Positions 6,590 to 20,738 of a stretch of 24,000 bases of DNA are shown here, one piece after another; position 1 is the stretch's first letter; every line of letters begins with the position of its first letter. This stretch comes from Extensimonas soli (lineage in GTDB: Bacteria; Pseudomonadota; Gammaproteobacteria; Burkholderiales; Burkholderiaceae_C), in NCBI RefSeq assembly GCF_029211265.1, contig NZ_JARGEL010000021.1, forward strand, positions 1 through 24,000, given 5' to 3'. Below the pieces are notes generated by a model. The model was given only the letters and a program-made list of their open reading frames with translations. It did not search any database and was not told the DNA's origin. The position numbers and the translations under genes are program-made.

Positions 6590-7111
6590 TTAGACAGCCT
6601 TTTCCCAGGTTCCTACCCCGTTAAATCCGTCGCGAGGGAATATCGTGATGGGATGTGTTGCGACATATTTTCTGCCTTCTAAATCCCGGTAATAAATCTT
6701 GACTTCGGCACTGGCCCCGTATTGAAGTTGGGGCTTTCCTGCGCCCGACTCACTGGCGCTTCCAAGACCTGCCTTGAGTGTTTCGCCGTTACGGATTATT
6801 GGAATCGTGGTTTCTTCCTTGAAGCAGTCATGCAGCAACTTGCGTTCATGTTGGCTGGCGTTTGGATCAATCAATTTTTCTAGTTCACTGGGCTTTATTC
6901 TTATGCTTATTCTCACTGCTGGCCTGCTGCCTGTATTTGAGATGCAGAAATTGAAGAGCGCAATACCCGCTCCGATTGAATCCTCTTCAACAAAGGCGCA
7001 TACGATCGGCCGATTTCCCTCTAGCCAATTGCGTCGTGTTAGCCATATGGAAATTAACGAAATAGCCAAGGCGGCAATGGTTGCGAGTGTTTTGTAGTCG
7101 TCTGCGGTCAT
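6590..7111 (-). CDS. Hypothetical N-terminally membrane-anchored protein on a small low-GC block
   Basis: 173-aa ORF in markedly AT-richer DNA than its flanks. It has one N-terminal TM helix (LATIAALAISLISIWL) followed by a beta-rich soluble domain. I recognise no family. Confidence 0.5.
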   Translation of the reverse strand: MTADDYKTLATIAALAISLISIWLTRRNWLEGNRPIVCAFVEEDSIGAGIALFNFCISNTGSRPAVRISIRIKPSELEKLIDPNASQHERKLLHDCFKEETTIPIIRNGETLKAGLGSASESGAGKPQLQYGASAEVKIYYRDLEGRKYVATHPITIFPRDGFNGVGTWEKAV

Positions 7112-7401
7112 CTTTGCAGTCTACCTAATGAAAAATCGCATAAATCGGTGAAAACTTGGGCCGGATTCCAATGATTTGCCGCCAAGGCCAACACTCCAAA
7201 GGCCGAGCGTAGCGATGGCCCATATGGTATTCCAAGCCCTTCTGCCTGCGCCGAGGAGCACAGCGCCCGGCGGGAGAAAGGCGCGCGATTGTTCGAGCGC
7301 AGCGAGTTTCGCGCGACCCCGCCGGGCGCATATCCCGGCATCAGCCACCTGCCCCATCACCTCCCCAAATAATTTGAATCTAACCCAATTTCCCCATGCT
7401 C

Positions 7402-8307
7402 CTACAACGCCCACACCCGTGGCGCAGTCGCCGGTCGTTGCCAGAAATGCGTCCGCCAGGCGGCGCGCAGCGCGCGGGCGAGGGCCATGGCGGGTTCGAC
7501 CTGGGGCGCGAGCATGCGCGCGAGCAGCAGTTGCGGGTGCGGGCTGGTGGCGCCGGCAGTGAGGGCGAGCGGGTGCGGGGCGATCACCGCACGCGCGGCG
7601 TCCAGCGCTGTTTCGCGCTGGGCGGGGGTCAGCGCCGTGCCGCTGGCAAAAAACACGCTTGCGAGGCAGCCGTGCCCAGCCAGGCCCAGCGGGCTGTGCA
7701 GCAGGTGCTGGTCGGCCGCGGCGATGGTGCCGCGCTCCAGCCAGACGCCGGGTATTTCGAGATGCTGCAGCAGGCGCCCCGATGCGGCAGGCGGCGCGGC
7801 GTCGGTCGGGTCGGGGGCATGGGCAGCGTGGACGGTATTCGCGGATGGTGTGGCCTGTGCGACGTGCGCGGGATCGGGCATCCAGCCCAACGCCGTCACG
7901 TCCCAGCCCAGACATTGCGCGCCGGGTTCGAGGGTGAGGCTGAGGTGGTTTTCGGCTTCGCTGGCGCGGTAGCACAGGGTTTCGAGCGGCAGCCATTCGA
8001 GGCGTGCGTCGGCTTGCAGCCGCAGTTGCGTGATCTGGCGCGCAGTCGCGCCTGCGCTGCGGTAAAAGCGCGTGGCGCCGGGGGTGGTGAGCAGGGCGTG
8101 CGTGCCGCTGGCTGCATCGACGGTGACTTGCAGCGTGTCGCCGCCCACGAGCCCACCCGGCGGGTGCACGAGCACGTTGTGGCAAATGTCTGCACCTTCG
8201 GGGTACAGACTTTGCAGGATGCGCAGCGGGCCCTGGTGGGTGTAGCGCGCCACGGTGCGCTGCGCTTGCAGGGTGTAGGCCAGGTGCAGGTGCGCGTGCC
8301 AGGTCAT
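7402..8307 (-). CDS. ureD: Urease accessory protein UreD (UreH)
   Basis: 301 aa with UreD-like blocks (LRILQSLYPEG...VLVHPPGGLVGGDTL, LLTTPGATRFYRS, EWLPLETL). It lies on the strand opposite to urt, and no ureA follows it. Confidence 0.85.
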   Translation of the reverse strand: MTWHAHLHLAYTLQAQRTVARYTHQGPLRILQSLYPEGADICHNVLVHPPGGLVGGDTLQVTVDAASGTHALLTTPGATRFYRSAGATARQITQLRLQADARLEWLPLETLCYRASEAENHLSLTLEPGAQCLGWDVTALGWMPDPAHVAQATPSANTVHAAHAPDPTDAAPPAASGRLLQHLEIPGVWLERGTIAAADQHLLHSPLGLAGHGCLASVFFASGTALTPAQRETALDAARAVIAPHPLALTAGATSPHPQLLLARMLAPQVEPAMALARALRAAWRTHFWQRPATAPRVWAL

Positions 8308-8326
8308 GCGGCGTTTACTATGAAAT

Positions 8327-8371
8327 ATGGAGCTTCCAACGCTTGATAAATAGGCGCTTGTGGTCGTTTTC
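8327..8371 (+). repeat. Copy C (diverged) of the intercistronic backbone repeat
   Basis: ATGGAGCTTCCAACGCTTGATAAATAGGCGCTTGTGGTCGTTTTC aligns with copy B with identical spacing through CGCTTGATA..AT..GCGC....G....TTTTC. It sits between the ureD start and the IS end. No downstream + strand gene remains. Confidence 0.45.
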
Positions 8372-8389
8372 GCTTGAATATTTTAGCCG

Positions 8390-9180
8390 TGAGGTCAAGG
8401 GGGTGTCCGGGTCGGATGGGCTTGCGGCGCGTGTCAAGGTAGTTGTCGCCTCATTCATGCAGCCACCGGCTGTCTATCGGAGTCGCCTGAATGCGTCTGG
8501 ACGATCGAGTCGCGTTCGGGGTTGAGGGTGACTGGGCCGATGGGCGACCAGTTGCGTGTCTTGCCCGACCAGCGAGCCGGATGGGCCTGGCGAGCCCGTG
8601 CATACAGTTCATGTCGCGCCGCCAGGATCGCACGATCCTCGCCCGCATGGCGCTGCGCGGGGCTCACGTAGCGGATGCCGCTGTGCCGATGCTCGTGGTT
8701 GTACCAATGCACGAAGCCAGCCGCCCAGGCGCGCGCGGCCTCCAGGTCGGCAAAGCCCTTGGCGGGGAACTGCGGGCGGTACTTGGCCGTGCGGAACAAG
8801 GACTCGGCATAGGCGTTGTCGTCGCTCACGCGCGGACGCGAGTACGAGGGCTTGACCCCCAGCCAATCGAGCATCGCCAGCACCGTGGTGGCCTTGAGCG
8901 TGGAGCCATTGTCGCCATGCAGCACCGGCTTGGCATCCAGCGCGGCAATGCCCTCGGCCAGCGCCGTGCGGCGCACCAGGTGGGCGGCATGCTGCGAATC
9001 ATCGGTTGCGTGCACCTCCCAGCCCACGATCTTGCGGCTGTACAAGTCCAGGATCAGGTACAGGTGAAACCAGCGCCCCAGCACAGCAGCCGGCAGATAG
9101 GTCATGTCCCAGCACCACACCTGGCGCGGTGCGGTGGCGATGTGCGTGGAGGAGGCAATTTCAATGTCTCGGTTCGCCAA
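8390..9180 (-). mobile_element. IS3-family insertion sequence remnant (3' ~0.8 kb only; orfA and the 5' part of orfB are missing)
   Basis: A TG-initiated terminal sequence TGAGGTCAAGGGGGTG at about 8390 is a plausible terminal inverted repeat. It is followed by a transposase core ORF. High-GC IS sequence stops abruptly at about 9180, where AT-rich island DNA begins. Confidence 0.7.
8455..9180 (-). pseudogene. IS3-family transposase OrfB (rve/DDE integrase core), 5'-truncated
   Basis: The DDE core is recognisable: QVWCWDMTYLP (D), LHGDNGS (D), AYAESLFRTAKYE-like (E), and HWYNHEHRHSGI. Only about 20 aa precede the first catalytic block, whereas intact OrfB proteins have about 100 or more. There is no upstream orfA or frameshift region. 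Confidence 0.8.
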
Positions 9181-9217
9181 ATTTCAGAGTGTAAATATTC
9201 TCTATGAATAGGCTATT

Positions 9218-9234
9218 TGTTCCGAATTGGAACA
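9218..9234. promoter_or_regulatory. Candidate operator/UAS, palindrome TGTTCC-GAATT-GGAACA (copy 1)
   Basis: 17-bp sequence with perfect 6-bp inverted arms. An identical copy lies 67 bp downstream. Both are 340-420 bp upstream of xmoC in AT-rich DNA. Confidence 0.4.
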
Positions 9235-9284
9235 ATATTTTAGGGTGGCATAACCAAGTTAAAACTGAAGATCCCCTGATATGT

Positions 9285-9301
9285 TGTTCCGAATTGGAAC
9301 A
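9285..9301. promoter_or_regulatory. Candidate operator/UAS, palindrome TGTTCC-GAATT-GGAACA (copy 2)
   Basis: Exact 17-bp repeat of 9218-9234. It is followed by a TATAAA hexamer at 9311-9316. Confidence 0.4.
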
Positions 9302-9641
9302 GTGCCTCGGTATAAACCCTAGGCCCCATATCGCAAGACGCAAACTCTCGTTAAACTTAAAGGGTGCTGGCTGTAGAAAGTCGCGCTCGCAGAGGACGTC
9401 CGGTTCCACGTCGCATGAAGGATGCAATGCGCTCGGGATTTATGTGTTCTGCGGCAGCTTCGAGCGAAGAGATGGACCTGCTGCCACAGCCATGGTCGGT
9501 CATGGTGCAACCTTTCAAAGGAAGGCGCGGGTCTGGAGTTCAGGTTGGCTTCGGCTTTTCGTTCTGAGCATGCTTTCAGTGGATTCTATGGCAGAGCACA
9601 CAATGGAGGCGGTAGTTTTTTTTCAACTGTAGGAGGTTGTC

Positions 9642-10436
9642 ATGTCAGCAGTAATCAACTCTGTCGGGAGGGACTCTCAAAAAGTCTCAAGCACTGACGA
9701 TAAGATGTTCAAAGTTGCCCCGGTGGCAATCGTCTGGGGTATTTTGCTTGCCATTTACCTTGGGTTGCGGGTCTACCAGCAAGAGTTCGCATTTAGCGTT
9801 GGTCTGGATTCGACTGCGCCCGAATTCGCCACGCACTGGATGGCGTTGCTGAAATTCGAGTTACCTGTGATATTTGGCTCGGGGGCGATAATATGGGCTT
9901 ACTTGTGGTTTACCCGTGACCGCAACATGGATGCACTGACTCCCAAGGAGGAGTTGCGTCGGTATTTTTCGCTCGTCAGTTGGTTCTTGCTTTATACCTT
10001 CGCCTTCCTGTGGATTGCCGGCTTTTTCGGCGAAGGTGATGCCGTCTGGCATCAAACGGTTGTGCGGGATACCTCCTTTACGCCCAGTCACATCGTTGTG
10101 TTCTATGCGTGCGTGCCAACCTATATCGTGTTTGGTGTAAGCGCACTGCTGTACGCAACGACGCGTCTGCCCCTTTTTGCCAAAAGGTATTCGGTGCCGT
10201 TGATCATGGTCGTTCTGGGGCCGGGCCTGATTTTGCCCAATCTTGGCTTCAATGAATGGGGGCACGCTTTCTGGTTGACTGAAGAAATCTTTAGCCATCC
10301 ACTGCATTGGGGTTTTCCGATTCTTGGCTGGACAGGTTTTGCTCTGGGCGGAGTTTTGTTGCAAGTGCTGAATCGCATGTACCAATTGTTTAGGCAAATC
10401 GATGGGTCGCCCGTAACGGACGCCACGGCTGCCTGA
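9642..10436 (+). CDS. xmoC: Copper membrane monooxygenase subunit C (AmoC/PmoC family)
   Basis: 264 aa, strong RBS AGGAGG 6 nt upstream. The hallmark block GDAVWHQTVVRDTSFTPSHIVVFY carries the CuC-site triad spacing D-x3-H-x12-H (D133, H137, H150). NEWGHAFWLTEEIFSHPLHW carries the CuD-type N-x3-H-x13-H (N204, H208, H222). Multiple TM helices. Confidence 0.93.
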   Translation: MSAVINSVGRDSQKVSSTDDKMFKVAPVAIVWGILLAIYLGLRVYQQEFAFSVGLDSTAPEFATHWMALLKFELPVIFGSGAIIWAYLWFTRDRNMDALTPKEELRRYFSLVSWFLLYTFAFLWIAGFFGEGDAVWHQTVVRDTSFTPSHIVVFYACVPTYIVFGVSALLYATTRLPLFAKRYSVPLIMVVLGPGLILPNLGFNEWGHAFWLTEEIFSHPLHWGFPILGWTGFALGGVLLQVLNRMYQLFRQIDGSPVTDATAA

Positions 10437-10450
10437 GACTTAGAAAATGG

Positions 10451-10512
10451 GAGAGTTCCTAAACCAGTTTGAAAAGGAAGAATTGCTTCCAAAATTCCGG
10501 TTTAGGACTCTC
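10451..10512 (+). other. Nested intercistronic stem-loop in the xmoC-xmoA spacer
   Basis: The outer stem is GAGAGTTCCTAAACC (10451-10465) / GGTTTAGGACTCTC (10499-10512), 14 bp with one bulged T. The inner hairpin is GGAAG-AATTG-CTTCC (10476-10490). Confidence 0.55.
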
Positions 10513-10533
10513 TGAAACAAGGGGATATATCAA

Positions 10534-11346
10534 ATGAATAGCAACGACCAAGCCATCCTGGCTATCTCGGGGCTCTCACCGCAAACTTTGCGATGGTCAC
10601 GAACTTTTGACATGTTAATCATCGTGATCGCCGCGTTCTTGGTGTGGGCGGTGAGTCACATCAACTTTCTGTTGCTTGCGGGTGATTGGGACTTTTTTAT
10701 TGACTGGAAAGATCGGCAGTATTGGGTTCTGATCATGCCGATTTCGACGATCATCACTGCAGCGGCCTTTCAGTCGATATTCTGGAACCTATTTAGGCTT
10801 CCCATCGGAGCCACCGCCAGCATGATGCTGTTGCTGATCAGCGTATGGATCGTGCGTTATCACGGCTGGCATACCTGGGCGGGTTTCCCTCTCAGTCTGG
10901 TTGTGCCGGCATCGTGCGTGATGGGGGCAATTGTGATGGACACTATCTTGGTCATTACGCGCAGTTGGGTCCTTACAGGGGTCTTTGGAGGGGTGCTGTT
11001 TTCGGTGCTCTTTTTTCCCAGCAACTGGACTTATTTGGCGCCTTATTTCCTTCCTGTGGAGCACATGGGTGAGGTGGCTCCAATCGCCGATATTATTGGT
11101 TATACATTCCCGCGTACGGCGACGCCCGAATATATTCGCATCATTGAACGTGGAAACCTCAGGACCTTCGAGGATTCGGCAAGCTGGGTATCAGCTGCCT
11201 TCGGCGGTTTTCTCTGCATATTTATCTATTGGATTTTTTGGACAGTCGGTGTTGTGGCCTGCAGCACTAAGTCGATTGCAGTGGGTCAGCGCTTTATGAT
11301 GCTGTTCGGTTTCAAGGGCAATAAAGGCGCGGAGGTGACTCAATGA
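10534..11346 (+). CDS. xmoA: Copper membrane monooxygenase subunit A (AmoA/PmoA family)
   Basis: 270 aa. Diagnostic blocks are GDWDFFIDWKDRQYW and PRTATPEYIRIIERGNLRTF (compare AmoA/PmoA GDWDFW.DWKDR and RTGTPEY.R..E.G.LRTF). Polytopic membrane protein. The stop overlaps the xmoB start (ATGA). Confidence 0.93.
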   Translation: MNSNDQAILAISGLSPQTLRWSRTFDMLIIVIAAFLVWAVSHINFLLLAGDWDFFIDWKDRQYWVLIMPISTIITAAAFQSIFWNLFRLPIGATASMMLLLISVWIVRYHGWHTWAGFPLSLVVPASCVMGAIVMDTILVITRSWVLTGVFGGVLFSVLFFPSNWTYLAPYFLPVEHMGEVAPIADIIGYTFPRTATPEYIRIIERGNLRTFEDSASWVSAAFGGFLCIFIYWIFWTVGVVACSTKSIAVGQRFMMLFGFKGNKGAEVTQ

Positions 11347-12605
11347 TTTTCCTCCTGAAAAGAATCACGATGCTGCTGATGGCGGTATCGGCCCTGATGG
11401 TTGGGCTGATGCCTGGCGTGGCGATGGCGCATGGAGAGCGTGCAACGGAGCCATACATCAGAACGCGTACCGTTCATTGGTATGACGTCAAGTGGTCTAC
11501 AGAAAAGGTCAACGTGAACGACCAAGTTGTCGTTACGGGGAAATTCAGGCTTTTCGGCGACTGGCCCGAGGCGGTGAGTCTCCCTAATTTGACCTATCTT
11601 GGAAACGGAGCGCCGTCAGCAATGCTGGTGCGAGAGGAGACCTACATCAACGGAATTCCTGCGCGCCAATCGCATAAGGATCTGGTGCTTGGTAGGGACT
11701 ATGACTTCAAAATAGTGTTGCGTGGGCGGGTTCCAGGGAAGTGGCACTTTCACCCAATGCTCAACGTTTCAGGCGCAGGTCCGATCATCGGGCCAGGAGA
11801 CTGGATTGAGGTCGTGGGCAATCGTGCGGACTTCAAGCAGTCGTTAACGACCATGCATGGCTTGAAAATCGACGATCTCGAGACTTATGGGGTCAAGAAC
11901 GCACAAATTTGGCAGGCCGGGCACGTGCTGCTGGCGATTGTTTGGTTGCTATGGTGGCTTCGTCGCCCGCTGATAATTCCTCGCTGGAGAGCCAAGGAGC
12001 AAGGGCGGGACGATCTGCTTGTCACGCGAACCGATGATCGCATGGCGGTGGTGTTTTTTGTCGTAGTGCTAGCGGTTGTCATTATTGGGTTCACCCAGGT
12101 CAAGAAAAACTATCCACAACTCGTTCCGTTGCAGGCGGGTGTGGAAAAGCCGGAGCCACTTCCGGCAGGGCCTCAGTGGGTGACGGTGAAGTACAAACGC
12201 GCAGAATACGACGTGCCAGGTCGGAGCATGCGAATCGTGGCTGAGTTTGAAAATCTATCTGACCGGGCAGTGACCATTGGTGAGTTTGATACAGCAAATC
12301 TCCGCTTCGTCAACAAGGCTTCTCCAGTCGCTCTGAAGGCGGTGGATCCGAAATATCCCAAAGAATTGTTACCTGCACATGGCTTGGTATTGGACAAGCA
12401 GGAGCCGCTGCAGCCAGGCGAGAAAAGAACGGTGGTTCTGAACGCCACAGACGCGGCTTGGGAAGTTGAGCGGCTCGTGAGCTTCCTGACGAACGTCGAT
12501 AGCCGGACTGGCGGGTTGATCTTCTTCTATGACGAGAAGGGAAATCGCTCGATCAGTGAAGTCTCCGGACCTATCTTGCCTGTCTTCAAAGGAGCCAGGA
12601 TTTGA
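11343..12605 (+). CDS. xmoB: Copper membrane monooxygenase subunit B (AmoB/PmoB family)
   Basis: 420 aa. The signal peptide ends VAMA|HGERATEPYIRTRTVHWYD, giving a mature N-terminal His (H30). An HxH motif is present in KWHFHPMLNVSGAGPIIGPGDW (H135, H137). Two central TM helices separate two cupredoxin-like domains, as in PmoB. Confidence 0.93.
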   Translation: MIFLLKRITMLLMAVSALMVGLMPGVAMAHGERATEPYIRTRTVHWYDVKWSTEKVNVNDQVVVTGKFRLFGDWPEAVSLPNLTYLGNGAPSAMLVREETYINGIPARQSHKDLVLGRDYDFKIVLRGRVPGKWHFHPMLNVSGAGPIIGPGDWIEVVGNRADFKQSLTTMHGLKIDDLETYGVKNAQIWQAGHVLLAIVWLLWWLRRPLIIPRWRAKEQGRDDLLVTRTDDRMAVVFFVVVLAVVIIGFTQVKKNYPQLVPLQAGVEKPEPLPAGPQWVTVKYKRAEYDVPGRSMRIVAEFENLSDRAVTIGEFDTANLRFVNKASPVALKAVDPKYPKELLPAHGLVLDKQEPLQPGEKRTVVLNATDAAWEVERLVSFLTNVDSRTGGLIFFYDEKGNRSISEVSGPILPVFKGARI

Positions 12606-13540
12606 TCAAGGGGCCTGCGGATGGATGGCGTGCTGAGGGTGCTCCACAGCTGCCGTCAATACGCCATCATCTGCGGAGCCCTTGGTCATTTATTGCATGC
12701 CTGATAGCTTTGCTATTACTGAGTGCGTGCGAAGGTCCTCAGACGAAGATTCTTCGCACGCCAATGGTGCATGATTACGGAGAGGATGCCATTGGAGAAA
12801 ACCGTTGCGAGCGGCGGGTGCCGCCGCAAGGGGAAAAGGAGCAGTTCGGCGGATGGAAGTTTCAAGATGGAGGAAGTCGATATCTCGTCAAGGTCCCTGT
12901 CAATTACGAAGAAAGCCGTATGCACCCATTGCTGGTGGTTTTTTCTCCAGCTGGAGCAAGCGCTGAAGACAACGAGCGATTCACGCGTCTGACGCCCGTT
13001 GCCACCGAAAAAGGATTCGTGGTAGCTTATATAGCAAGTAGGCCGATGAGCCTTGCTAGCGTAAAAGCTCAAGCAAAAGTGATTGGGACACTGATGGCGG
13101 GCTGGTGCATAGATCCGAAACAAGTCTTTTTTGCTGGACATTCGGATGGGGGGACAGTATCAACAATATTGGCTCTGTTGCCTGAGTCGCGTGGAGTCGC
13201 AAGCGGAATTGCAGTCAGCGCTGCAGGCGTATTGCCCTTAGATACACAGCCGATGGGCTGCCCCTCAAAGCCGCTGAAGGTGTTGCTAATGCATGCGGAA
13301 GACGACACACACTTCCCAGGATATGGTCGCAAAATGGCGCAATGGTGGTCGCAGTGTTTTCGCTGTACTGGTGTAGAGGCAAAGCCGGATGCAAAGGGAT
13401 GTAGGAATTATATTGGGTGCGAATCAAGCGAGCTGAAGTTTTGCGAAGGGTCTGGTGGACACACAAAATGGCCCGCTATGCAGAGTGAAATGTTGAATTT
13501 TTTTCTGTCGAAACAACTGGACAACCCAAGGGGACAATAA
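12602..13540 (+). CDS. Lipoprotein alpha/beta-hydrolase (PHB-depolymerase/esterase-like serine hydrolase)
   Basis: 312 aa. The only canonical start is TTG at 12602, overlapping the xmoB stop. Lipobox LLLSAC. Nucleophile elbow GHSDGG, with candidate triad Asp (HAEDDTHF) and His (GSGGHTKW). The layout resembles the esterase/PHB depolymerase family (LLVVFSP...GFVVAY...FFAGHSDGG). Confidence 0.65.
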   Translation: MIKGPADGWRAEGAPQLPSIRHHLRSPWSFIACLIALLLLSACEGPQTKILRTPMVHDYGEDAIGENRCERRVPPQGEKEQFGGWKFQDGGSRYLVKVPVNYEESRMHPLLVVFSPAGASAEDNERFTRLTPVATEKGFVVAYIASRPMSLASVKAQAKVIGTLMAGWCIDPKQVFFAGHSDGGTVSTILALLPESRGVASGIAVSAAGVLPLDTQPMGCPSKPLKVLLMHAEDDTHFPGYGRKMAQWWSQCFRCTGVEAKPDAKGCRNYIGCESSELKFCEGSGGHTKWPAMQSEMLNFFLSKQLDNPRGQ

Positions 13541-14157
13541 TGAGGTTTTGGTCAAAAATTGCTCGAACGGCCATCTTTGGCGATGGCACTGTACGTCGAG
13601 CTGTGTGGCCTTTTTTAGCGCTGTGCTGCAGCATGGCAGCGCCGATGGCAATGGCGCACGGTGGCCTCAGCATGGATCAGGACAAGTGTGTGCTCAGGGT
13701 CGGTCCTTATTTTATGCATTTCGCTGGCTACCAGCCCAGCAGTAGTGGGGCTACGGAGTTTTGTGAGGATATTCCAGCGGCCGGCCAGACGGTAGTGACG
13801 ATCGACGCGATCGACGACGCGCTACGATCTATGCCGCTACAAGTAAGAATAGTTCGAGACACCGGAGCTCCACCCGCGGAGCCGCCACGCGAGGCAGACA
13901 CAGTGCTGTATATACCTCCCAAGTTGTATCCAGCAGGCAGCGTGTCGTTTGAATATAAATTCGATGGTCCGGGGAAATTTGTTGGCTATGTACAGGCAGG
14001 TGACAATGGTCAGCATGTGTCCAGGTTTCCATTCAGTGTCGGTCGCACACAAAGTGTTTGGAGTAGCATGATGCCATATGTGGGCCTGGGTACGCTGGCG
14101 TTACTGTTGTTGGCGTACACAGGAAGGCGGCGGATATCATCCAAGTCGGTCAATTAA
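13540..14157 (+). CDS. Secreted, C-terminally membrane-anchored protein with predicted mature N-terminal His; PmoD/AmoD-like architecture (unverified)
   Basis: 205 aa. The start overlaps the upstream stop (TAATG). The signal peptide ends PMAMA|HGG. It has a ~135-aa periplasmic domain with Cys50, Met59-His60 and Cys75, plus one C-terminal TM helix (YVGLGTLALLLLAY) and a basic tail. Its position after the CAB genes mirrors amoE/amoD and pmoD. Confidence 0.55.
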   Translation: MRFWSKIARTAIFGDGTVRRAVWPFLALCCSMAAPMAMAHGGLSMDQDKCVLRVGPYFMHFAGYQPSSSGATEFCEDIPAAGQTVVTIDAIDDALRSMPLQVRIVRDTGAPPAEPPREADTVLYIPPKLYPAGSVSFEYKFDGPGKFVGYVQAGDNGQHVSRFPFSVGRTQSVWSSMMPYVGLGTLALLLLAYTGRRRISSKSVN

Positions 14158-14331
14158 GTCCGGCATTGGAGTTATATAAGAATGGTGTGTGATGAGTCAT
14201 CTGACCGAGAATATCGGGGTTTCTATGTGTGTGCTGGTTTAATTCTGGGCGTGGAATAATTTATTTGGATTTGATATAGATAGGCGCTCGAAATGTTCAA
14301 GTTTGTAAAATAGATTGAGAATAACCTAATC

Positions 14332-14838
14332 ATGAATATCAATATGAATCAAAGCATGGCCAGTCGAGCTGGCGTTATTTGTGCAATGGTGTGCGCGACG
14401 TTCTTGCCGATAAGTGCTGTCAATGCTGGCATGCATGATCACGCGGGTCATGCCAACGATAAAGCGGTTTCCAAGCCAGTGGAGAAAGGGGATTTCCCGT
14501 CCTTGCGATTCCTCTCGCCGAAGTCTAACGACAAAATTGGTCGTGTTATCACCGTTGAGTTCGAGACACCTGCGGACTTGACGAAAATGACAATGGGGGG
14601 TGGGGTGGTGGGTGTCCATCTTCATTTGGACTTGGATGGAGCGGTCATGATGCCAACCAGCTCCGAACTGACCCGTACTGCCAAGGACCGTTACCGTTAC
14701 ACCTTCGATCTGCCAGTGAAGCCCGGAACACACGTCGTAAAGATCTATTGGTCTGATAGCATGCATAAGACAATAGAAGAATCAGTTCAGACGGTCCGCT
14801 TCACGGTGGTAGAAGGGCAATCTGGAGATAAGCAGTGA
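14332..14838 (+). CDS. Periplasmic His-rich Ig-like protein (DUF4399-like), putative copper-binding
   Basis: 168 aa. The signal peptide ends AVNA|GMHDHAGHAND. The body resembles DUF4399 proteins (LRFLSPKSNDKI...VTVEFE, GVHLHLDLDG, PGTHVVKIYWSD). The stop overlaps the copC GTG start (GTGA). Alternative in-frame ATGs exist at 14344 and 14356. Confidence 0.6.
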   Translation: MNINMNQSMASRAGVICAMVCATFLPISAVNAGMHDHAGHANDKAVSKPVEKGDFPSLRFLSPKSNDKIGRVITVEFETPADLTKMTMGGGVVGVHLHLDLDGAVMMPTSSELTRTAKDRYRYTFDLPVKPGTHVVKIYWSDSMHKTIEESVQTVRFTVVEGQSGDKQ

Positions 14839-15209
14839 GTCGACGCAGCGCGCTCAAGGCAATGCTGGGCGCATCCTGCTTGGTGCTGCTGGCACCATTT
14901 GCACGTGCTCATGCGGGACTCGAAAAGTCCGAACCTGCACGACGCGCGACACTGAGCAAGGCGCCTAAGAAAATCCGGCTGTGGTTTAACGAACGTCTCG
15001 AGCCTGATTACGCCTCGGTAAAGCTCTACGGAGAAGATGGCGAGAAGCTAATAGAGACGCCTAAGGCCGTGGTCGACGCCATGGATCCCAAGTTGTTAGA
15101 GATGGAGTTGCCGCCTCTGCCGCCGGGCCAGTACACAGTGAAGTACCGTGTGCTGTCGGTTGATGGGCACACGGTTGACTACGGTTACGTTTTCACAATA
15201 AAGCCCTAG
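14835..15209 (+). CDS. copC: Copper chaperone/resistance protein CopC (Cu(II)-site type)
   Basis: 124 aa. The signal peptide ends ARA|HAGLEKSEP, the classic CopC mature N-terminus H-x-x-L-x-x-S-x-P. A D-x-H motif occurs in LSVDGHTV. There is no Met-rich Cu(I) loop. Confidence 0.85.
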   Translation: MSRRSALKAMLGASCLVLLAPFARAHAGLEKSEPARRATLSKAPKKIRLWFNERLEPDYASVKLYGEDGEKLIETPKAVVDAMDPKLLEMELPPLPPGQYTVKYRVLSVDGHTVDYGYVFTIKP

Positions 15210-15368
15210 GAGCCTGTCGGACTTTGGGCGTCGAAAGCGAGAATGTGCCCCAGCGAGGCCAGTTTTTTCCGGATTCGCCGCCCCATAGTGGTGCTATGGG
15301 GTAAGAAGACGGTAAAAAATGGACCGCTGTGGCACAGTTGCAGCCGTCGATTCAAGTCCGACGGGCGC
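15210..15368. mobile_element. MITE-like 159-bp imperfect palindromic element flanked by CTAG direct repeats
   Basis: Terminal inverted repeats are GAGCCTGTCGGACTT (15210-15224) and the reverse complement of 15354-15368 (GCGCCCGTCGGACTT), 13/15 identical. Internal arm pairing includes TGTGCC/GGCACA, CAGCG/CGCTG, T6/A6 and a central perfect hairpin CCCCATAG-tggtg-CTATGGGG (15281-15301). CTAG lies at 15206-15209 and 15369-15372. Confidence 0.5.
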
Positions 15369-15395
15369 CTAGACTATTAGCAGGCAGGGTGTTTA

Positions 15396-17471
15396 GTGCT
15401 GGAGTTTTCGATAGCGATACGCTGGATCATGCTGGTCAGCGCTAGTGCACTGCTTGGGGCGCTGACACTGATGCTCCTGTCCGGCAAAGGTGGAGGTGCG
15501 GCTGCCGACCAATGGAGGGGCAAGCTTCAAAACATCGGTGCAGTGCTGATCGCAGGGTGGATCGCGTTCTCCTTCGTGGCATTGGGTGTGCAGGCGGCGG
15601 CCGTTACCGGTCACACGGAGGCGGCATGGACGTGGCGCGAGTGGCGTCATGTGCTGGAGAACACGCGTTTCGGTGCAATCTGGATGCTCCGGCTGCTGGT
15701 CGGGGTGAGCCTTCTGGTTTTGCTGCTGTGGCAACGCAGAAGGCGGATGGTTCGACGGGAAGGCCTGATTGCGGCGTGGGTGTTGGCAGTGATAGTCCAG
15801 TGTGCTGCCGCTTGGTCAGGACATGGTGCTGCGCTTGAGCCTGCTGTGATTGGGCTAGGTGCTGTGGCGGCTCACCTATTGTGCGCAGGGATTTGGGCCG
15901 GAGCATTGCCTTGGTTGGTGCTGGGCTTCGGTCAGGCCGCACATGCCAACGCTTCCTCTGAGTACAAACAATGGATGCGATCCGTTTTGGTGCGATTTTC
16001 AGCGCTGGCCACTGTCGGTGTCTTGGTCATTTTGGCCTCCGGCACCGTGATGACCTATTTGTTGGTCGAGGCGCCCAAAGAATGGCCTGCGCGTGCAGGT
16101 GACTGGCTGGCCGGTGCATCGACCGTGCTCGAGAGGGTCGTCGCGCCGTTGCTTTCCACCCGTTTTGGAACCTGGGTTCTGATCAAGATCGGCTTGTTTC
16201 TGATCATTTTGTGGCTGGCCTCCGGTGTGCGTTGGCGTGACCTGCCGCGCATTGCATCCGGCAATGCCCAATCGTGGGCGGGAGCACGTCGTAGCGTGTT
16301 GCTCGAGGCCTTGGTCGTCGCAGCGTTGCTGTGTGCGGCGGCGATAGCCGCCTCTTCAATACCCGCGGCCCACGACACCATGGTATGGCCGCTGCCGTTC
16401 CGAGTATCGATGGCTGCGACTTGGAGCCAGCCGAATGTACCAATGTGGTTCGCGCTGGCGAGTTTCGGCCTCGTGATTGCTTTGGTAATCGGTGCGCGAC
16501 CCTGGGTACGTCTCCTGACGCGAAAACAGCTCGAAAAGAAAGATGTTTGGAGAGCCATCTTGGGTGCAGGTTCCATGCTGGCGGCGACGGGTACGATGTT
16601 ATGGCTCCTGGCTGTTCCAGCCTATCCGGAGACCTACTTGAAAAGTGACGTAGCCTATGACGCAGTGTCGATTGCGCGAGGAACGGGCCTATATCCGCGT
16701 CATTGCGCGCAGTGTCACGGAGTCGGAGCGCACGGGGACGGACCGCTGGCAACGAAGCTTGCCAAGCGGCCAGCTGATCTGTCGCAGCCGCACACGGCGC
16801 TGCATACAGCTGGCGACATCTTCCACTGGATCACGTATGGCATAGCGAATTCCCCGATGCCGGGATTTCGTGGCATTACCACGGACGACGACCGTTGGGA
16901 CCTTGTCAACTTTCTGCGTCTGTTCTCTTCAGGCCATCAGGCCCGCATTTTGACACCTAGAGTGGTTCAGGGTCAGCCATGGCTCGGAGCGCCAAACTTC
17001 GACTATGTCGACGCGCAAAGCATATCGGGCTCGCTCAAGGAGCTGCGTGGTCACGTCGTACTCCTTGTCTTTTACACGCTCCCGACTTCGCAAAAGAGGT
17101 TCGCGCAACTGGTCGCGCTGCAAGCGCGTATGCGGGAGCGGGGCGTGGAAATAGTCGCTGTACCGCTGCCAGGTTCACAGGCAGCTGATGCAGCTTCTTT
17201 GCCGTTCATATTGCCGGTTGATGGTGCTGCAGAAATCGCAAGGGCTTACCTTCTCCTTCGTCGAACCAAGGACGACGCTGGAAGAACAGTGGCCGATGAG
17301 GTGCCTGCGCATATGGAGTTTCTCATTGACCGCTTCGGTTACGTGCGGGCCCGCTGGGTGGATGTGCCGAAGTCACAAGAGTGGCGCGACGAGGGTTTTT
17401 TGCTGCGGCAGATTGAACTGTTGAACGAGGAGCCACGTCTGATGCCGTCGCCAGACGACCATGTTCATTGA
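15396..17471 (+). CDS. copD: CopD-family copper transport membrane protein fused to a c-type cytochrome domain and a Cys-less peroxiredoxin/thioredoxin-like domain
   Basis: 691 aa, GTG start. The N-terminal ~410 aa is polytopic and CopD-like. The heme-binding motif CAQCH lies at nt 16704-16718, with a downstream ...NSPMPGF Met ligand candidate. The C-terminal ~150 aa resembles the Prx/redoxin fold (GHVVLLVFYTLPTSQKRF, HMEFLIDRFGYVRARW) but has no Cys where the peroxidatic/CxxC Cys would be. Confidence 0.8.
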   Translation: MLEFSIAIRWIMLVSASALLGALTLMLLSGKGGGAAADQWRGKLQNIGAVLIAGWIAFSFVALGVQAAAVTGHTEAAWTWREWRHVLENTRFGAIWMLRLLVGVSLLVLLLWQRRRRMVRREGLIAAWVLAVIVQCAAAWSGHGAALEPAVIGLGAVAAHLLCAGIWAGALPWLVLGFGQAAHANASSEYKQWMRSVLVRFSALATVGVLVILASGTVMTYLLVEAPKEWPARAGDWLAGASTVLERVVAPLLSTRFGTWVLIKIGLFLIILWLASGVRWRDLPRIASGNAQSWAGARRSVLLEALVVAALLCAAAIAASSIPAAHDTMVWPLPFRVSMAATWSQPNVPMWFALASFGLVIALVIGARPWVRLLTRKQLEKKDVWRAILGAGSMLAATGTMLWLLAVPAYPETYLKSDVAYDAVSIARGTGLYPRHCAQCHGVGAHGDGPLATKLAKRPADLSQPHTALHTAGDIFHWITYGIANSPMPGFRGITTDDDRWDLVNFLRLFSSGHQARILTPRVVQGQPWLGAPNFDYVDAQSISGSLKELRGHVVLLVFYTLPTSQKRFAQLVALQARMRERGVEIVAVPLPGSQAADAASLPFILPVDGAAEIARAYLLLRRTKDDAGRTVADEVPAHMEFLIDRFGYVRARWVDVPKSQEWRDEGFLLRQIELLNEEPRLMPSPDDHVH

Positions 17472-18240
17472 TTGGGAAAAACTTGACATGAGATATCTTT
17501 CATTGGCCATTGCCGTTGCCGCATATGGGCTTTTCGCCGGTACCTTCGCAGCACTCTTGCTGTTCATGCATGATTATTTTTCGCCGTCGTGGGGTGCTGG
17601 CGTCGACGTCTGCAGCCATGACCTACTCAACCACATCGGCGTCGACAGCGCATTGATAGTCTTGTTCGGGTTGCAGCACAGCATCATGGCGCGTCGGTCT
17701 TTCAAGCAGCGATGGACCCGTATCGTGCCGCAGCATTTGGAGCGGACCGCTTACGTGATCGCATCGAGTGTCGCATTGATCGTGATGATGGTGTATTGGC
17801 ACCCAATTCCGATGCTCGTTTGGGAGGCTGGGTCTGTAGTGATGTGGTGGCTGAGTATTGCGGCGGGTGTGATGGGGGTCGTTATTGTCCTGTGGTCAAC
17901 ATTTTTGACAGATCATTTTGAACTCTTCGGCCTTCGCCAGGCTTATCTCCACGACCGAGGCATCGCTTGGACGCCGGTACCTTTCAAGAAGGCAGCGCTT
18001 TACAACTTCGTGCGCCATCCGATGATGCTCGGCATGTTGATCCTGCTGTGGGTCACCCCGCGCATGACCCAGGGTCATCTAGTGCTCGCCCTGGGTTTCA
18101 CGCTGTACGTGCTGATCGGGGTGTATTTTGAGGAGCGGGATCTACGCCGTGAACTCGGGCCCGAGTATGAGAGCTACCGGCGTTCCACACCCATGCTGAT
18201 TCCTCGGCTGTGGCCGGTTGCCCCAAACGGGGCAAGTTGA
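17461..18240 (+). CDS. ICMT/PEMT-family integral membrane methyltransferase (MddA-like)
   Basis: 259 aa with multiple TM helices. The C-terminal signature is LYNFVRHPMMLGMLILLW...YFEERDLRRELGPEYESYRRSTPMLIP, typical of isoprenylcysteine carboxyl / phospholipid methyltransferase-like enzymes. The GLQHSIMARRSFK block is as I recall in methanethiol S-methyltransferase-like proteins. It overlaps the copD stop by 11 nt (alternative ATG at 17491). Confidence 0.65.
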   Translation: MFIDWEKLDMRYLSLAIAVAAYGLFAGTFAALLLFMHDYFSPSWGAGVDVCSHDLLNHIGVDSALIVLFGLQHSIMARRSFKQRWTRIVPQHLERTAYVIASSVALIVMMVYWHPIPMLVWEAGSVVMWWLSIAAGVMGVVIVLWSTFLTDHFELFGLRQAYLHDRGIAWTPVPFKKAALYNFVRHPMMLGMLILLWVTPRMTQGHLVLALGFTLYVLIGVYFEERDLRRELGPEYESYRRSTPMLIPRLWPVAPNGAS

Positions 18241-18404
18241 CGCGAGTCGTCAGCGATGGCTGAAGCAGAATCTCAAGCAAATCGCGCAAGATGGCTCGAG
18301 CCATGGGAGGCGGTGGCGACGCATCGGTAGGGATGGGGCACCTGATGCCTTCCAACCCTGGCTAATCTACGAAGAGCCCGCTATTGGTGTCATGACCGTC
18401 AGGC

Positions 18405-20669
18405 TCAGTCCCGTGTTTCGAGCAGGCGCTCGACGGTGGCGCAGAACTCCTGCATGTCGTTGGGTTTGTGGATCAGGGCGCGCGCGCCCTCGGTCAGCGC
18501 GGCTTGCTCGATCTCGCTGCTGATGTAGCCCGAGGCCAGCGCCACGGGCAGCTGGGGGTGGATCTGGCGCGCTGCGCGCAGCAAGTCCACACCCGAAAAG
18601 CCCGGCATGTTGTAGTCGGTCACGAGCAGATCGTAGGTTTTGGGGTGGGTGTGCAGGGCTTGCAGCGCCGCCTGCGGATCGGTAAAGGTGCTGACTTCGT
18701 AGCCGCGTCGGCGCAGCAGGCGTTGCACCACGAAGACCAGCGCCTGGTCGTCGTCGACGTACATCACGTGGTGCGGGCGTGCCGCTGCGCTGTCCTTGGG
18801 CGTGGACGCTGGCACAGGCAGAGCGGCCACAGAAGGGGAGGGCGGCGGTGCGGTCTCCTGTGCAGCGCCTTGCGGCGCAACCGGCTCCATGTGGGAGGCG
18901 GCGCCATGGGTGGTCGGAAAATACAGCGTGAAGCGGCTGCCCTTGCCAGGGCTGCTTTGCACATCGACCCCGCCACCATGCGTGCGCATGATGCCGTGCA
19001 CCACGGCGAGCCCCAGGCCCGTGCCCTGGCCCACCGGCTTGGTGGTGAAAAAAGGCTCGAAGATGCGCCCCAGCGTGGCCGCGTCCATGCCGGGGCCATC
19101 GTCGCGCACCGTCAAGGCGATGTAGTCGGTGTGGGCGGCGAGGCCCAGGCGTTCGCGCAGGCGCTGCTCGGGCTGTACGCGCAGCGCTTCGACGTGGACG
19201 TGGCCGCGACGGCCGCCCAGCGCCTGCACGGCATTGGTGCAGAGGTTGAGCACGGCCTGACCAACCTGCGTGGCGTCGCCGAGCACGGGGGGCAGGTTTT
19301 CGGGCACCTGCACGTGCAGGGCGATGCTGGGCGGCAGCGTGACGCGCAGCAGGCGTTCGGTGTCGTGCGCGACTCCGGCAAGCTGCACGGCAGCGCGCTG
19401 CGGCGGCTCGTTGCGGCTGAAGGTGAGGATCTGGCGCACCAGATCGCGCGCACGCCGCGCAGCCTTGTCGATTTCGTTCAGGCTCTCGAGCAGGGCGCTG
19501 CCCTGCGTTCCAGGCGAGGCCGAGGTGCAATCGGCCTTGGCGAGTTCGACGTTGCCCAGGATTGCGCCCAGAATGTTGTTGAAGTCGTGCGCGATGCCGC
19601 CGGCCATGGTGCCCACGGCCTGCATCTTGTGCGACTCGCGCAACTGTGCTTCGAGCTCGTTGCGCTGCGCCTCGGCCTTTTTGCGGCCCGTGAGGTCGCG
19701 CGCGAACACGGTGGCAGTCTCGCCCGTGGCATGGCGCTCGAACGAGATGCTCACTTCGACCGCAAGCTCTTTGCCGCCGGCGGTGCGCGCTGTCATCTCG
19801 CCGAGCATGGCCTGTGTCGTGAGCTGCGAGAACGCCAGCGCCTGCGCTGCACCGGGCAAGAAGCGCTCGAGCGGGCTGCCCAGCGCGTCGTCGGCGTTGC
19901 ACTGGAACAGCGCCGCCGCCGTGGGGTTGAATACGGTGATGCGCTGCTCTTGATCGACGCAAAGGATGGCGTCGAGCGCCGAATCGATCACCGCAGCCAG
20001 GCGCTTTTCGCTCGCGCGCAGTTGCGCATTACGCTCCTGCAGCGCGCGGCGCTCGGCAAGGAGCGGCCCCTGGTCGATCACGGCGCACAAGAATTGCACC
20101 GGCGCCGGGGTGTCTTCATCTTCCTGTGCCGCTTCGATGCGCGCGATGTGCAGGTCGCCCGTGATGGCGGGGTGGCCTTCGATCGTGAACACCACTTCCG
20201 TGATCTCGCTGTGTCCCCGTTCGCTGGCCTGCGCGAACCCCTGCCGCACGCGCTCCAGGTCACCCGGGTGCACGAAGGGTTGCAGCATGGTGAGCGGCCG
20301 GTCGCGCTCGCTCGGCTGGAACGAGCGGTGCGCCATGGCGTTGGCCTGCACCACGATGTCGTGCGCATCGACCACCATGAGCGCGAGCGGCACGCTCGCA
20401 AACAGCGTCTCGAAGCGCTCCGACGCGCGCTCTGCCATCGCCTGGCTGTAGCGCAGCATCGCGTTTTGGCTCTCGAGCTCGGTCTGCGAGGCGCGTAGCT
20501 CGGCGATCAGCGCCGCGACGGCGCCGTGCGGCCTATCCGTGCCACGACGTTCCTCCGTGGCAGGAGCCAGCGGGGCCGCGGTCGCCGGCGGGGGCGGACC
20601 GGCGGACGAACGATGCGCATCCTCCGCCAGGGCAGCGGCAAAAAGCAGGGAAAGGTCAGGGCGTGTCAT
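18405..20669 (-). CDS. Soluble hybrid sensor histidine kinase (coiled coil + PAS domains + HisKA/HATPase + C-terminal receiver)
   Basis: 754 aa with no obvious TM segment. H-box GGIAHDFNNILGAILGN. ATPase G-boxes are present (DDGPGMD, GQGTGLGLAVVHG). The receiver contains VMYVDDDQALV...LLVTDYNMPGFSG...LIHKP. High-GC backbone composition. Confidence 0.9.
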   Translation of the reverse strand: MTRPDLSLLFAAALAEDAHRSSAGPPPPATAAPLAPATEERRGTDRPHGAVAALIAELRASQTELESQNAMLRYSQAMAERASERFETLFASVPLALMVVDAHDIVVQANAMAHRSFQPSERDRPLTMLQPFVHPGDLERVRQGFAQASERGHSEITEVVFTIEGHPAITGDLHIARIEAAQEDEDTPAPVQFLCAVIDQGPLLAERRALQERNAQLRASEKRLAAVIDSALDAILCVDQEQRITVFNPTAAALFQCNADDALGSPLERFLPGAAQALAFSQLTTQAMLGEMTARTAGGKELAVEVSISFERHATGETATVFARDLTGRKKAEAQRNELEAQLRESHKMQAVGTMAGGIAHDFNNILGAILGNVELAKADCTSASPGTQGSALLESLNEIDKAARRARDLVRQILTFSRNEPPQRAAVQLAGVAHDTERLLRVTLPPSIALHVQVPENLPPVLGDATQVGQAVLNLCTNAVQALGGRRGHVHVEALRVQPEQRLRERLGLAAHTDYIALTVRDDGPGMDAATLGRIFEPFFTTKPVGQGTGLGLAVVHGIMRTHGGGVDVQSSPGKGSRFTLYFPTTHGAASHMEPVAPQGAAQETAPPPSPSVAALPVPASTPKDSAAARPHHVMYVDDDQALVFVVQRLLRRRGYEVSTFTDPQAALQALHTHPKTYDLLVTDYNMPGFSGVDLLRAARQIHPQLPVALASGYISSEIEQAALTEGARALIHKPNDMQEFCATVERLLETRD

Positions 20670-20738
20670 GGTGGCAAACCTCGCTGCGTGGCCCGCAGGC
20701 CGGCGCGCAGCGCAGGATTGCCAGTGTAAGCCTGCGCT

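Follow-up and report, generated by a model that had tools for sequence, protein, structure and literature searches.

A putatively acquired copper membrane monooxygenase cassette in the heterotroph Extensimonas soli

Introduction

How does an ordinary soil heterotroph come to carry a copper membrane monooxygenase (CuMMO), and what would the enzyme oxidize there? These questions are raised by a 24,000-nucleotide stretch of the Extensimonas soli genome (contig NZ_JARGEL010000021.1, positions 1 to 24,000; hereafter the window), in which nine adjoining genes of deviating composition encode such an enzyme, which we call XmoCAB, together with a set of putative partners. Genomes and single-cell data have revealed CuMMOs in organisms other than nitrifiers and methanotrophs, with almost no demonstrated substrates among them, and CuMMO biochemistry has been held back by a shortage of tractable hosts. 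Judging from the sequence, a 9.2-kb nine-gene cassette appears to have been gained by horizontal transfer in this Comamonadaceae heterotroph. We hold with moderate confidence that XmoCAB, served by a dedicated copper-supply and partner set, would oxidize short-chain alkanes (C2–C4) or closely related small hydrocarbons.

The XmoA encoded in the window is 100% identical to WP_275850452.1 of E. soli H3M7-6T (= JCM 36176 = CGMCC 1.61336), and both fall in the same 90% XmoA cluster; the window thus very likely derives from this type strain or from one almost identical to it. According to the species description, this strain is an aerobic heterotroph that was isolated on agar from coking-plant soil polluted with polycyclic aromatic hydrocarbons (PAH) and metals, and was re-streaked on R2A, on which it forms colonies in 2 days; its genome has a guanine-plus-cytosine (GC) content of 65.3% and an average nucleotide identity of 91.7% to E. 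vulgaris. An initial annotation, made from the letters of the window, had taken the host to be Comamonadaceae-like. Congruently, the kinase encoded next to the cassette shares 87% of its amino acids with E. vulgaris and ~70% with many Acidovorax.

Results

The predicted monooxygenase

The cassette consists of nine co-oriented genes on the + strand, namely xmoC, xmoA, xmoB, est, xmoD, orf6, copC, a copD–cytochrome c–thioredoxin-like fusion and an mddA-like gene, with start/stop overlaps at five pairs (xmoA/xmoB, xmoB/est, est/xmoD, orf6/copC and copD/mddA). The same nine genes are found on a 10.4-kb metagenome contig (L002) at 83% nucleotide identity (17% divergence), with an XmoA 92% identical to that of the window. 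All open reading frames (ORFs) of the cassette are intact, and against the L002 copy the ratio of nonsynonymous to synonymous substitution rates (dN/dS) lies between 0.05 and 0.16 for all nine, which are therefore real, constrained genes.

The first three genes follow the C-A-B order on one strand that is typical of CuMMO operons, and their products score far above the Pfam thresholds, in agreement with the AmoCAB/PmoCAB-family assignment of the initial annotation. The product of xmoC (9642..10436, + strand; dN/dS 0.046) matches AmoC (PF04896) with 295.5 bits against a cut-off of 26.7, that of xmoA (10534..11346, +) matches AMO (PF02461) with 249.5 bits against 27.5, and that of xmoB (11343..12605, +) matches Monooxygenase_B (PF04744) with 446.8 bits against 22.7. 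We then aligned the subunits with those of solved particulate methane monooxygenases (pMMO) and ammonia monooxygenases (AMO). In XmoC, Asp133, His137 and His150 as well as Asn204, His208 and His222 coincide with metal-site residues of PmoC; in XmoB, His135-x-His137 is conserved and the predicted mature N-terminus, His30 (AMA/HGE), aligns with residue 1 of the mature PmoB/AmoB chains. In the known structures of pMMO these positions are the copper ligands, and XmoCAB is predicted to be a complete copper membrane monooxygenase with intact copper ligands.

The NCBIfam equivalog profiles gave a mixed picture. XmoC passed the cut-off of AmoC_BACT (337 bits vs. 319) and XmoB that of AmoB_BACT (528 vs. 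336), while XmoA remained under that of AmoA_BACT (261.5 vs. 290), and the E-values of XmoB were equal for AMO (7.6e-103) and pMMO (1e-102). Since two of the three subunits pass the NCBI "bacterial ammonia monooxygenase" cut-offs, metagenome surveys run the risk of counting enzymes of this clade as nitrification markers by mistake. Methylibium and Burkholderiaceae proteins from metagenome-assembled genomes (MAGs; P0078 and P0096) bear the name "bacterial ammonia monooxygenase, subunit AmoA", yet they are only ~42% identical to solved AmoA.

To place the enzyme among CuMMOs we used a neighbor-joining distance tree of 119 XmoA-type sequences. XmoA is 37.5–37.8% identical to two solved AmoA (9pxf and 9leg) and 42.6–43.5% identical to two solved PmoA, and it sits in a large clade that is separate from the AmoA of ammonia-oxidizing bacteria (AOB) and outside the PmoA/PxmA clade. 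Its companions there are MAG proteins of Vitreoscilla (77% identity), Sterolibacterium and Burkholderiaceae (~69%) and Polycyclovorans (64%), together with Solimonas aquatica (58.8%) and Bradyrhizobium (58.1%). No XmoA match bears the genus name Rhodoferax or Polaromonas, and a scan of genome contigs with a single XmoB returned one short MAG contig only. The Xmo of Solimonas aquatica DSM 25927 and of Bradyrhizobium sp. have been given as of unknown function (Khadka et al., 2018; PMC6215863), and the CuMMOs of Polaromonas, Rhodoferax and Solimonas have been listed together as neither AMO nor pMMO, likewise of unknown function (PMC8630023). The Xmo clade has thus already been reported, as the initial annotation had cautioned for the Comamonadaceae, and the cassette adds one more member to a known but little-studied CuMMO clade rather than representing a new type of system.

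Composition, borders and history of the cassette

The composition of the DNA changes sharply at the edges of the cassette. The GC content between 9181 and 18300 is 0.541, compared to 0.662 at 1–6500, 0.678 at 7401–9180 and 0.679 at 18301–24000, and in 100-nt windows it falls from 0.65 (9050–9149) to 0.38 (9150–9249), a step that coincides with the end of an insertion sequence (IS) fragment of the IS3 family. At third codon positions (GC3) the nine genes range from 0.49 to 0.67, while urtA–E, ureD, the kinase gene and gcvP range from 0.83 to 0.92. The pooled synonymous-codon distance between the island and its flanks, 0.231, was equalled in 0 of 5000 label permutations, and the tetranucleotide correlation is 0.63–0.69 between island and flanks but 0.92–0.95 between one flank and the other. 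The deviation is therefore strong by windowed GC, GC3 and codon usage alike, and the drop at about 9181, the lower GC over nine co-oriented, mostly overlapping genes and the return to backbone values near 18300, all of which had been read off the window beforehand, are borne out.

The left border is marked by the IS3-family transposase gene (8455..9180, − strand; Pfam rve/rve_3), whose composition is backbone-like (GC3 0.81) and of which just the C-terminal integrase-core part is present. The ORF covers only positions 210–368 of the 369 of the NCBIfam transpos_IS3 profile (159 positions), and the element is therefore truncated exactly at the GC drop. The same IS3/cassette junction is found in two independent metagenome contigs (L016 and L017), and by comparison with the diverged copy the border can be set at 9194, where homology to L002 begins. 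On the right, a cassette-specific spacer (18241..18404) common to the window and L002 ends at the stop codon of a gene for a PAS hybrid histidine kinase/response regulator (18405..20669, −), which belongs to the host backbone. The E. vulgaris sequence departs from the window directly past this stop codon, where L002 still matches, and its homology begins at 18417, 12 nt inside the 3′ end of the kinase gene.

From 18417 to 24000 E. vulgaris aligns to the window at 92.6% nucleotide identity, while within the cassette it matches only at a 170-bp repeat. The related MAG GCA_049322855 (90% nucleotide identity) likewise retains gcvTHP and the kinase gene, and in these two genomes acs or dnaB comes next, in the place of the cassette, which makes this an empty site. 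The alignment of L002, on the other hand, extends from 9194 past the right border and on into the kinase gene. As L002 has the cassette at this kinase junction too, the acquisition is older than the split between the two, though still lineage-restricted. The left flank of L002 matches neither the window nor E. vulgaris, hence there is no clean filled/empty pair on that side. We also found the cassette, at 99.7% nucleotide identity or with an identical XmoA, in metagenome contigs that come from three separate samples; two of these contigs extend across the IS3/cassette junction. We conclude that the cassette (9194–18404) was gained in the lineage from which E. soli and the L002 organism descend, and that its left side was remodelled later by an IS. 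The initial annotation had proposed horizontal acquisition, and the comparison agrees with it: most relatives, E. vulgaris and GCA_049322855 among them, do not have the block at this locus, and one closer relative, L002, does share the junction.

Neither target-site duplications, terminal inverted repeats nor flanking direct or inverted repeats were found at the borders, nor a tRNA integration site; no integrase marks them, and no Rfam elements were found. A plasmid origin was considered and set aside, as there is no close XmoB among 72,556 plasmids. We also considered whether the transferred segment reaches into the kinase gene, where identity to E. vulgaris is 81% at the 3′ end compared to 92.6%, and rejected it because the same stretch varies equally between two island-free relatives. 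In that gene, positions 18690–18890 (−) are hypervariable (54–71% nucleotide identity) inside a kinase/gcvP region that is otherwise 90–98% conserved; this stretch is probably a Pro/Ala-rich linker ahead of the receiver domain.

As a separate observation, the synonymous divergence (dS) between the window and L002 is higher for the cassette genes (9642–18240; 0.44–0.89) than for the kinase fragment (18405–19047; 0.26), which could reflect weaker codon bias of the foreign genes or allelic replacement by recombination.

The leader upstream of xmoC

Between the left border and xmoC lies a non-coding leader (9194..9641, +), a regulatory region in which the perfect palindrome TGTTCCGAATTGGAACA occurs twice, at 9218–9234 and 9285–9301, 67 bp apart, compared to an expectation of 0.02 by chance. 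Both palindrome half-sites are retained in L002, to which the leader is 82% identical at its 5′ end and 84–90% identical in its last 100 nt, against 69–76% at third codon positions. The twin palindromes, situated at the 5′ end of the leader, which is conserved, are candidate operator sites. As a general xmo operator the palindrome was rejected, for it occurs only in Extensimonas-type cassettes. Moreover, the regulators of the relatives, which are of the MimR or bacterial enhancer-binding protein type, prompted us to look for a sigma-54 promoter upstream of xmoC, which was rejected as well: no TGGCAC-N5-TTGC within 2 mismatches was found in 9181–9641, and matches across the whole window were under the chance level. 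No sigma-70 consensus was found upstream of xmoC either.

The esterase and XmoD

The gene that follows xmoB, est (12602..13540, +), encodes an esterase-like lipoprotein of the alpha/beta-hydrolase type. It opens with a TTG at 12602, and the true start may lie downstream. The protein has a lipobox (LLSAC), invariant Ser147 (in a GHSDGG elbow), Asp201 and His253, and eight invariant Cys, and its family profile matched a feruloyl esterase (9j07, 1.3e-13), LC-Est1C (2.6e-13) and an esterase of the polyhydroxybutyrate-depolymerase family (1.5e-11); dN/dS against L002 is 0.138. We surveyed 39 related xmo loci with at least 2.5 kb of sequence after xmoB and found the esterase in 19, sited after xmoB, after xmoD or after copD. 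Neighborhoods that bear it (L002, L008, L011, L024, L027, L034–36, L047, L057, L062–66, L072–74, L083–84 and L102) cover XmoA identities of 42–92%. The family is small, with 85 representative clusters at E ≤ 1e-30 among 1.84 billion. In a reciprocal check from two independently chosen esterase homologs on short contigs, xmoD adjoined one and the other was uninformative. A CuMMO-linked lipoprotein esterase is not mentioned in a 2026 AMO review.

The next gene, xmoD (13540..14157, +), belongs to the PmoD/AmoD family and is present in 36 of the surveyed loci. Its product has a signal peptide, a cupredoxin-like domain and a C-terminal transmembrane helix, and residues 49–168 align with PmoD of PDB entry 6cpd (E 2.6e-18), the only solved XmoD homolog. 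Cys50 and His60 align with the Cys and His of the CuA site and are conserved in all four lineages compared; the position of the axial Met is taken by Phe58, with Met59 adjacent, so that the Met is displaced by one residue. The axial Met is likewise not conserved in AmoD/E, and the architecture of the PmoD/AmoD family has been described (PMC13058606).

The copper-handling half

An AT-rich spacer (14158..14331) parts xmoD from orf6 and divides the cassette into two halves. L002 has a 363-bp spacer in this place that shows no relationship to it (23.6% identity), even though the flanking genes are conserved, and blastn homology to L002 is broken at 14157–14277. In another related locus (L008), other genes lie between the two halves. 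Because the xmoD–orf6 spacers are unrelated between the two Extensimonas-type copies and the halves stand apart in L008, the cassette looks bipartite, made of xmoCAB-est-xmoD and orf6-copC-copD-mddA. The spacer is a candidate internal promoter and may hold an independent one for the copper-handling half.

This half begins with orf6 (14332..14838, +), which encodes an orphan periplasmic protein with a His-rich N-terminus that has no sequence match in Pfam, NCBIfam or PDB. Its homologs amount to only 12 clusters among 5.8 billion, with invariant His37, His96, His98, His145, Met88 and Met107, and dN/dS against L002 is 0.163. The AlphaFold2 model shows a well-defined domain (pLDDT ~90) with an immunoglobulin (Ig)-like beta-sandwich fold; an identity based on the fold was rejected, as Foldseek gives generic Ig-like matches with CopC as one among many. 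The following gene, copC (14835..15209, +; Pfam CopC, 86.9 bits), encodes a periplasmic copper-binding protein whose domain begins at His26, directly past the signal peptide. A DGH motif is present, and reading the sequence directly we saw no Met-rich Cu(I) motif.

Between copC and copD lies an imperfect palindrome of ~170 bp (15206..15373) that resembles miniature inverted-repeat transposable elements (MITE) or repetitive extragenic palindromes (REP). Its predicted DNA fold has −51.9 kcal/mol (z = −7.0), the L002 copy is 77% identical, and it is 88.8% identical to positions 92–261 of an E. vulgaris contig (L018) upstream of gcvT, matching in both orientations. It looks like a MITE/REP-like element of the host lineage that invaded the foreign cassette.

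The fusion gene (15396..17471, +) encodes a membrane protein of 691 amino acids with CopD, cytochrome c and thioredoxin-like parts (Pfam CopD, Cytochrom_C and AhpC-TSA; NCBIfam CopD, 95 bits), and the same fusion adjoins xmo in L002, L008 and L013. The heme motif CxxCH is conserved, and so is, out to Solimonas, the C-terminal PDDHVH, which could bind metal. The AhpC/TSA-like, thioredoxin-fold domain has no Cys in three lineages (the window; L002, 6806–8881; L013, 13228–15186), therefore no thiol redox chemistry is possible there. The last gene (17461..18240, +) encodes an MddA-like membrane methyltransferase of the NnrU family (Pfam NnrU), with 230.7 bits for NCBIfam MddA, under the cut-off of 270. 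It is linked to xmo in L002 and L008 only, and its dN/dS against L002 is 0.115. The initial annotation had called the six accessory genes largely uncharacterized. This holds for the esterase, orf6 and the MddA-like gene but not for PmoD/AmoD, CopC and CopD, which are known CuMMO partners.

Gene context in relatives

Across the surveyed loci, CopC and CopD–cytochrome c occur in about 20, orf6 in 5 and the MddA-like gene in 2. In named relatives the regulators beside xmoCAB are of the MimR_N-GAF-HTH_8 or the sigma-54 type, and further neighbors are a Toluene_X (FadL/TodX) porin, aldehyde dehydrogenase, acetyl-CoA hydrolase/transferase, acyl-CoA synthetase, and pyrroloquinoline quinone (PQQ) and Zn alcohol dehydrogenases. 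The nitrification genes hao and cycAB were found neither in the 24-kb window nor beside any related operon examined. Compared with these relatives, the E. soli cassette is a stripped version, with the enzyme and the copper and partner set only.

The flanks of the cassette

Outside the cassette, the window holds genes for a urtABCDE-type ABC transporter, ureD, the PAS hybrid kinase/response regulator and gcvP/H, and these identities agree with the housekeeping flanks previously described. A second low-GC patch (~0.48) lies at 6450–7200, between urtE and ureD, and is probably a separate small insertion. It contains an ORF (6590–7111, −) for 173 amino acids that has island-like codon usage and encodes a hydrophobic helix at the N-terminus; neither Pfam nor PADLOC gave a match for it, and the only match was a weak one to PHROG 9607 (E 1e-5), a family of unknown function. 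Between this patch and the IS3 fragment, ureD (7402–8307, −) is intact but orphaned, on the strand opposite to urtABCDE and with no ureABC after it. The species description gives a negative result for urea hydrolysis in E. soli, and with ureD orphaned this would be compatible with a disrupted urease cluster.

Discussion

Proposed role and what weighs against it

Taken together, the genes suggest the following course of events. XmoCAB would form the usual (CAB)3 complex of the inner membrane and hydroxylate a small hydrophobic substrate with O2, most likely a C2–C4 alkane, with neither ammonia nor methane serving as the energy source. CopC and the CopD–cytochrome c fusion would bring in copper and pass it on, and might do the same with electrons by way of the heme; XmoD, a cupredoxin of the PmoD type on a C-terminal helix anchor, would aid copper loading or electron transfer; and the periplasmic lipoprotein esterase and the orf6 product might act as clade-specific helpers. 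Expression could depend on a host factor that binds the twin palindromes upstream of xmoC, and the product alcohol would be handled by host dehydrogenases. Since neither a regulator nor any alcohol or aldehyde dehydrogenase is encoded in the cassette, both its expression and the downstream metabolism would rely on the host. In line with a hydrocarbon substrate, the betaproteobacterial xmo bacteria of Rochman and colleagues (2020) reportedly assimilated ethane and propane, and not methane.

Several points weigh against an alkane oxidase. CuMMOs are promiscuous, and genomic context therefore cannot fix the physiological substrate. The cassette is devoid of the regulator and of the alcohol and aldehyde dehydrogenase genes that back the hydrocarbon inference in its relatives, and the searches for sigma-70 and sigma-54 sites found no consensus promoter in the xmo leader. 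XmoC and XmoB pass the equivalog cut-offs of AmoC_BACT and AmoB_BACT, while the characterized actinobacterial hydrocarbon enzymes are only 27–34% identical in subunit B. In addition, the placement of XmoA was made on a set that excludes the sequences of Rhodoferax/Polaromonas, Haliea (ethylene) and Methylacidiphilum PMO3 (acetone). Finally, the species paper of E. soli tests no gaseous substrates and never mentions a monooxygenase, methane, ammonia or copper.

Alternative explanations

The only serious competitor is that the enzyme serves another class of small substrates, such as ketones like acetone, alkenes like ethylene, or the cyclic and aromatic hydrocarbons of coal tar, with the esterase acting on an ester or lactone intermediate. 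This we consider possible though unlikely. It draws on the linkage of a serine esterase with an intact triad to xmoCAB, in variable positions, in about half of the surveyed loci, on the xmoD found beside one independently chosen esterase homolog, and on the MimR-type regulators, known from propane and acetone systems, that flank the relatives. A CuMMO acting on acetone has been documented, namely PMO3 of Methylacidiphilum (PMC8630023). Moreover, the strain comes from PAH-polluted soil, and the enzyme is also carried by Polycyclovorans relatives. On the other side, the esterase is a lipid-anchored protein of the periplasm that is missing from half of the related loci, no Baeyer-Villiger monooxygenase is present among the Pfam domains listed for the annotated related loci, and nothing in the sequence separates these substrates from alkanes.

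Could E. soli instead oxidize ammonia to hydroxylamine, as a cryptic nitrifier, through heterotrophic nitrification or by co-metabolism? The equivalog scores of XmoC and XmoB would fit an ammonia monooxygenase, as would the succession of CAB, a PmoD/AmoD gene and copCD, which resembles the beta-AOB amoCABED-copCD, and the best single PDB match of XmoA, which is an AMO subunit. But XmoA itself, with its AmoA_BACT score under the cut-off, is less identical to AmoA than to PmoA and belongs to a different clade; hao and cycAB are missing from the window and from the surroundings of related operons, where alcohol and aldehyde dehydrogenases are found instead; and the host is a heterotroph that was isolated on agar and re-streaked on R2A. 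We therefore judge this explanation improbable, and the alternative reading that the initial annotation had itself put forward, a canonical AmoCAB of AOB, does not hold.

A different kind of objection is that the cassette was inherited vertically and that its low GC reflects constraints on CuMMO operons rather than transfer. In many hosts xmoCAB operons are indeed compositionally atypical (PMC6215863), a relative 17% diverged has the cassette at the same kinase junction, the borders show no direct repeats, tRNA or integrase, and a MITE-like element of the host lineage is already inside. Against this stand a GC3 gap (0.49–0.67 vs. 0.83–0.92) that is synonymous and extends to the non-membrane accessory genes, the empty site in E. 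vulgaris and the related MAG with homology ending at the kinase stop, the truncated IS3 exactly at the left edge, and the scatter of the nearest XmoA relatives over Vitreoscilla, Sterolibacterium, Burkholderiaceae and Gammaproteobacteria. Vertical inheritance is thus very improbable. Three findings had been named beforehand as speaking against the initial annotation, namely an unremarkable composition, a locus shared by most relatives and a canonical AmoCAB; we looked for all three, and none of them refutes it.

Still less probable is a methane monooxygenase, pMMO- or Pxm-like, through which the host would oxidize methane: XmoA is slightly nearer to solved PmoA than to AmoA and every copper ligand that pMMO needs is present, but XmoA lies outside the PmoA clade, the TIGR03080 score is 230 against a cut-off of 318, no methanol dehydrogenase or C1 genes adjoin in the window or in relatives, and the description of the host is that of an ordinary heterotroph. 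The related betaproteobacteria of Rochman (2020) are also said to show no assimilation of methane. We give equally little credence to a silent or decaying passenger, no longer expressed after loss of its regulator and downstream pathway genes, for although the cassette is, unlike those of relatives, without regulator, alcohol or aldehyde dehydrogenase, has no recognizable promoter and was rearranged by an IS on its left side, its nine ORFs are intact with dN/dS of 0.05–0.16 against the 17%-diverged copy, its leader and palindromes are conserved, and near-identical cassette DNA occurs in metagenome contigs of three samples, including two that span the IS3/cassette junction.

Significance

An acquired cassette for oxidizing short-chain alkanes, or closely related small hydrocarbons, thus probably remains the best account of the locus. 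As E. soli H3M7-6T is a cultured and validly described type strain, the cassette is compact with defined borders and a sister species offers the empty site, the substrate range, the copper delivery by CopC, CopD–cytochrome c and XmoD, and the role of the esterase are directly testable; the recurrent, undescribed esterase and orf6 partners are of value too. A bolder and doubtful proposal is that the cassette is a portable, self-sufficient CuMMO kit, the two modules of which would hold all that is needed for an active enzyme in a foreign, fast-growing heterotroph, with the esterase and orf6 product as unrecognized factors that a large CuMMO clade would require for maturation or as partners. If that were true, the island-free E. 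vulgaris as a recipient would provide the long-missing genetic system for functional CuMMO expression.

Comparison with known systems

One system near in kind, judged by host and gene layout, is the xmoCABD of Rhodoferax and Polaromonas (Rochman et al., 2020, ISME J 14:714), likewise hosted by Comamonadaceae that are neither nitrifying nor methanotrophic, with the C-A-B order followed by a PmoD-type gene and with relatives in a hydrocarbon-pathway context. The E. soli cassette differs in its genus, Extensimonas, with a cultured type strain, and in the esterase gene between xmoB and xmoD; it also has its own orf6-copC-copD-cytochrome c-mddA module and no regulator. The Xmo of Solimonas and Bradyrhizobium share the large XmoA clade (58.8% and 58.1% identity), and Solimonas also has xmoCAB-xmoD-copC-copD-cytochrome c-thioredoxin-like and an orf6 homolog. 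They are, however, ~41% diverged in amino acids, and in Solimonas PQQ and Zn alcohol dehydrogenases, a sigma-54 activator and a GMC oxidoreductase stand beside the operon, with the esterase upstream on the other strand.

The amoCABED-copCD of beta-AOB (Nitrosomonas/Nitrosospira) resembles the cassette in its three subunits, which are homologous and share the metal ligands, in the PmoD/AmoD-family gene that follows amoB and in the copCD located downstream. In E. soli, by contrast, XmoA (37.5–37.8% identity) falls in a separate clade and under the AmoA equivalog cut-off, a single xmoD stands in place of amoE and amoD, CopD is fused to cytochrome c and to a Cys-less thioredoxin-like domain, and the window of this heterotroph offers no hao/cycAB context. 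With the pmoCAB of Methylococcus and Methylocystis, accompanied by pmoD/copCD, the cassette shares the fold family and the copper sites, while its XmoA (42.6–43.5%) is outside the PmoA clade, the axial Met of XmoD is displaced by one residue and no C1 genes are nearby. Finally, HmoCAB and BmoCAB of Mycolicibacterium chubuense NBB4 and Rhodococcus sp. ZPP are CuMMOs that oxidize C2–C4 alkanes in heterotrophs, the activity we propose for XmoCAB; they are plasmid-borne and belong to another host phylum, with 27–34% identity in subunit B, whereas the E. soli cassette is without a close relative in the plasmid collection.

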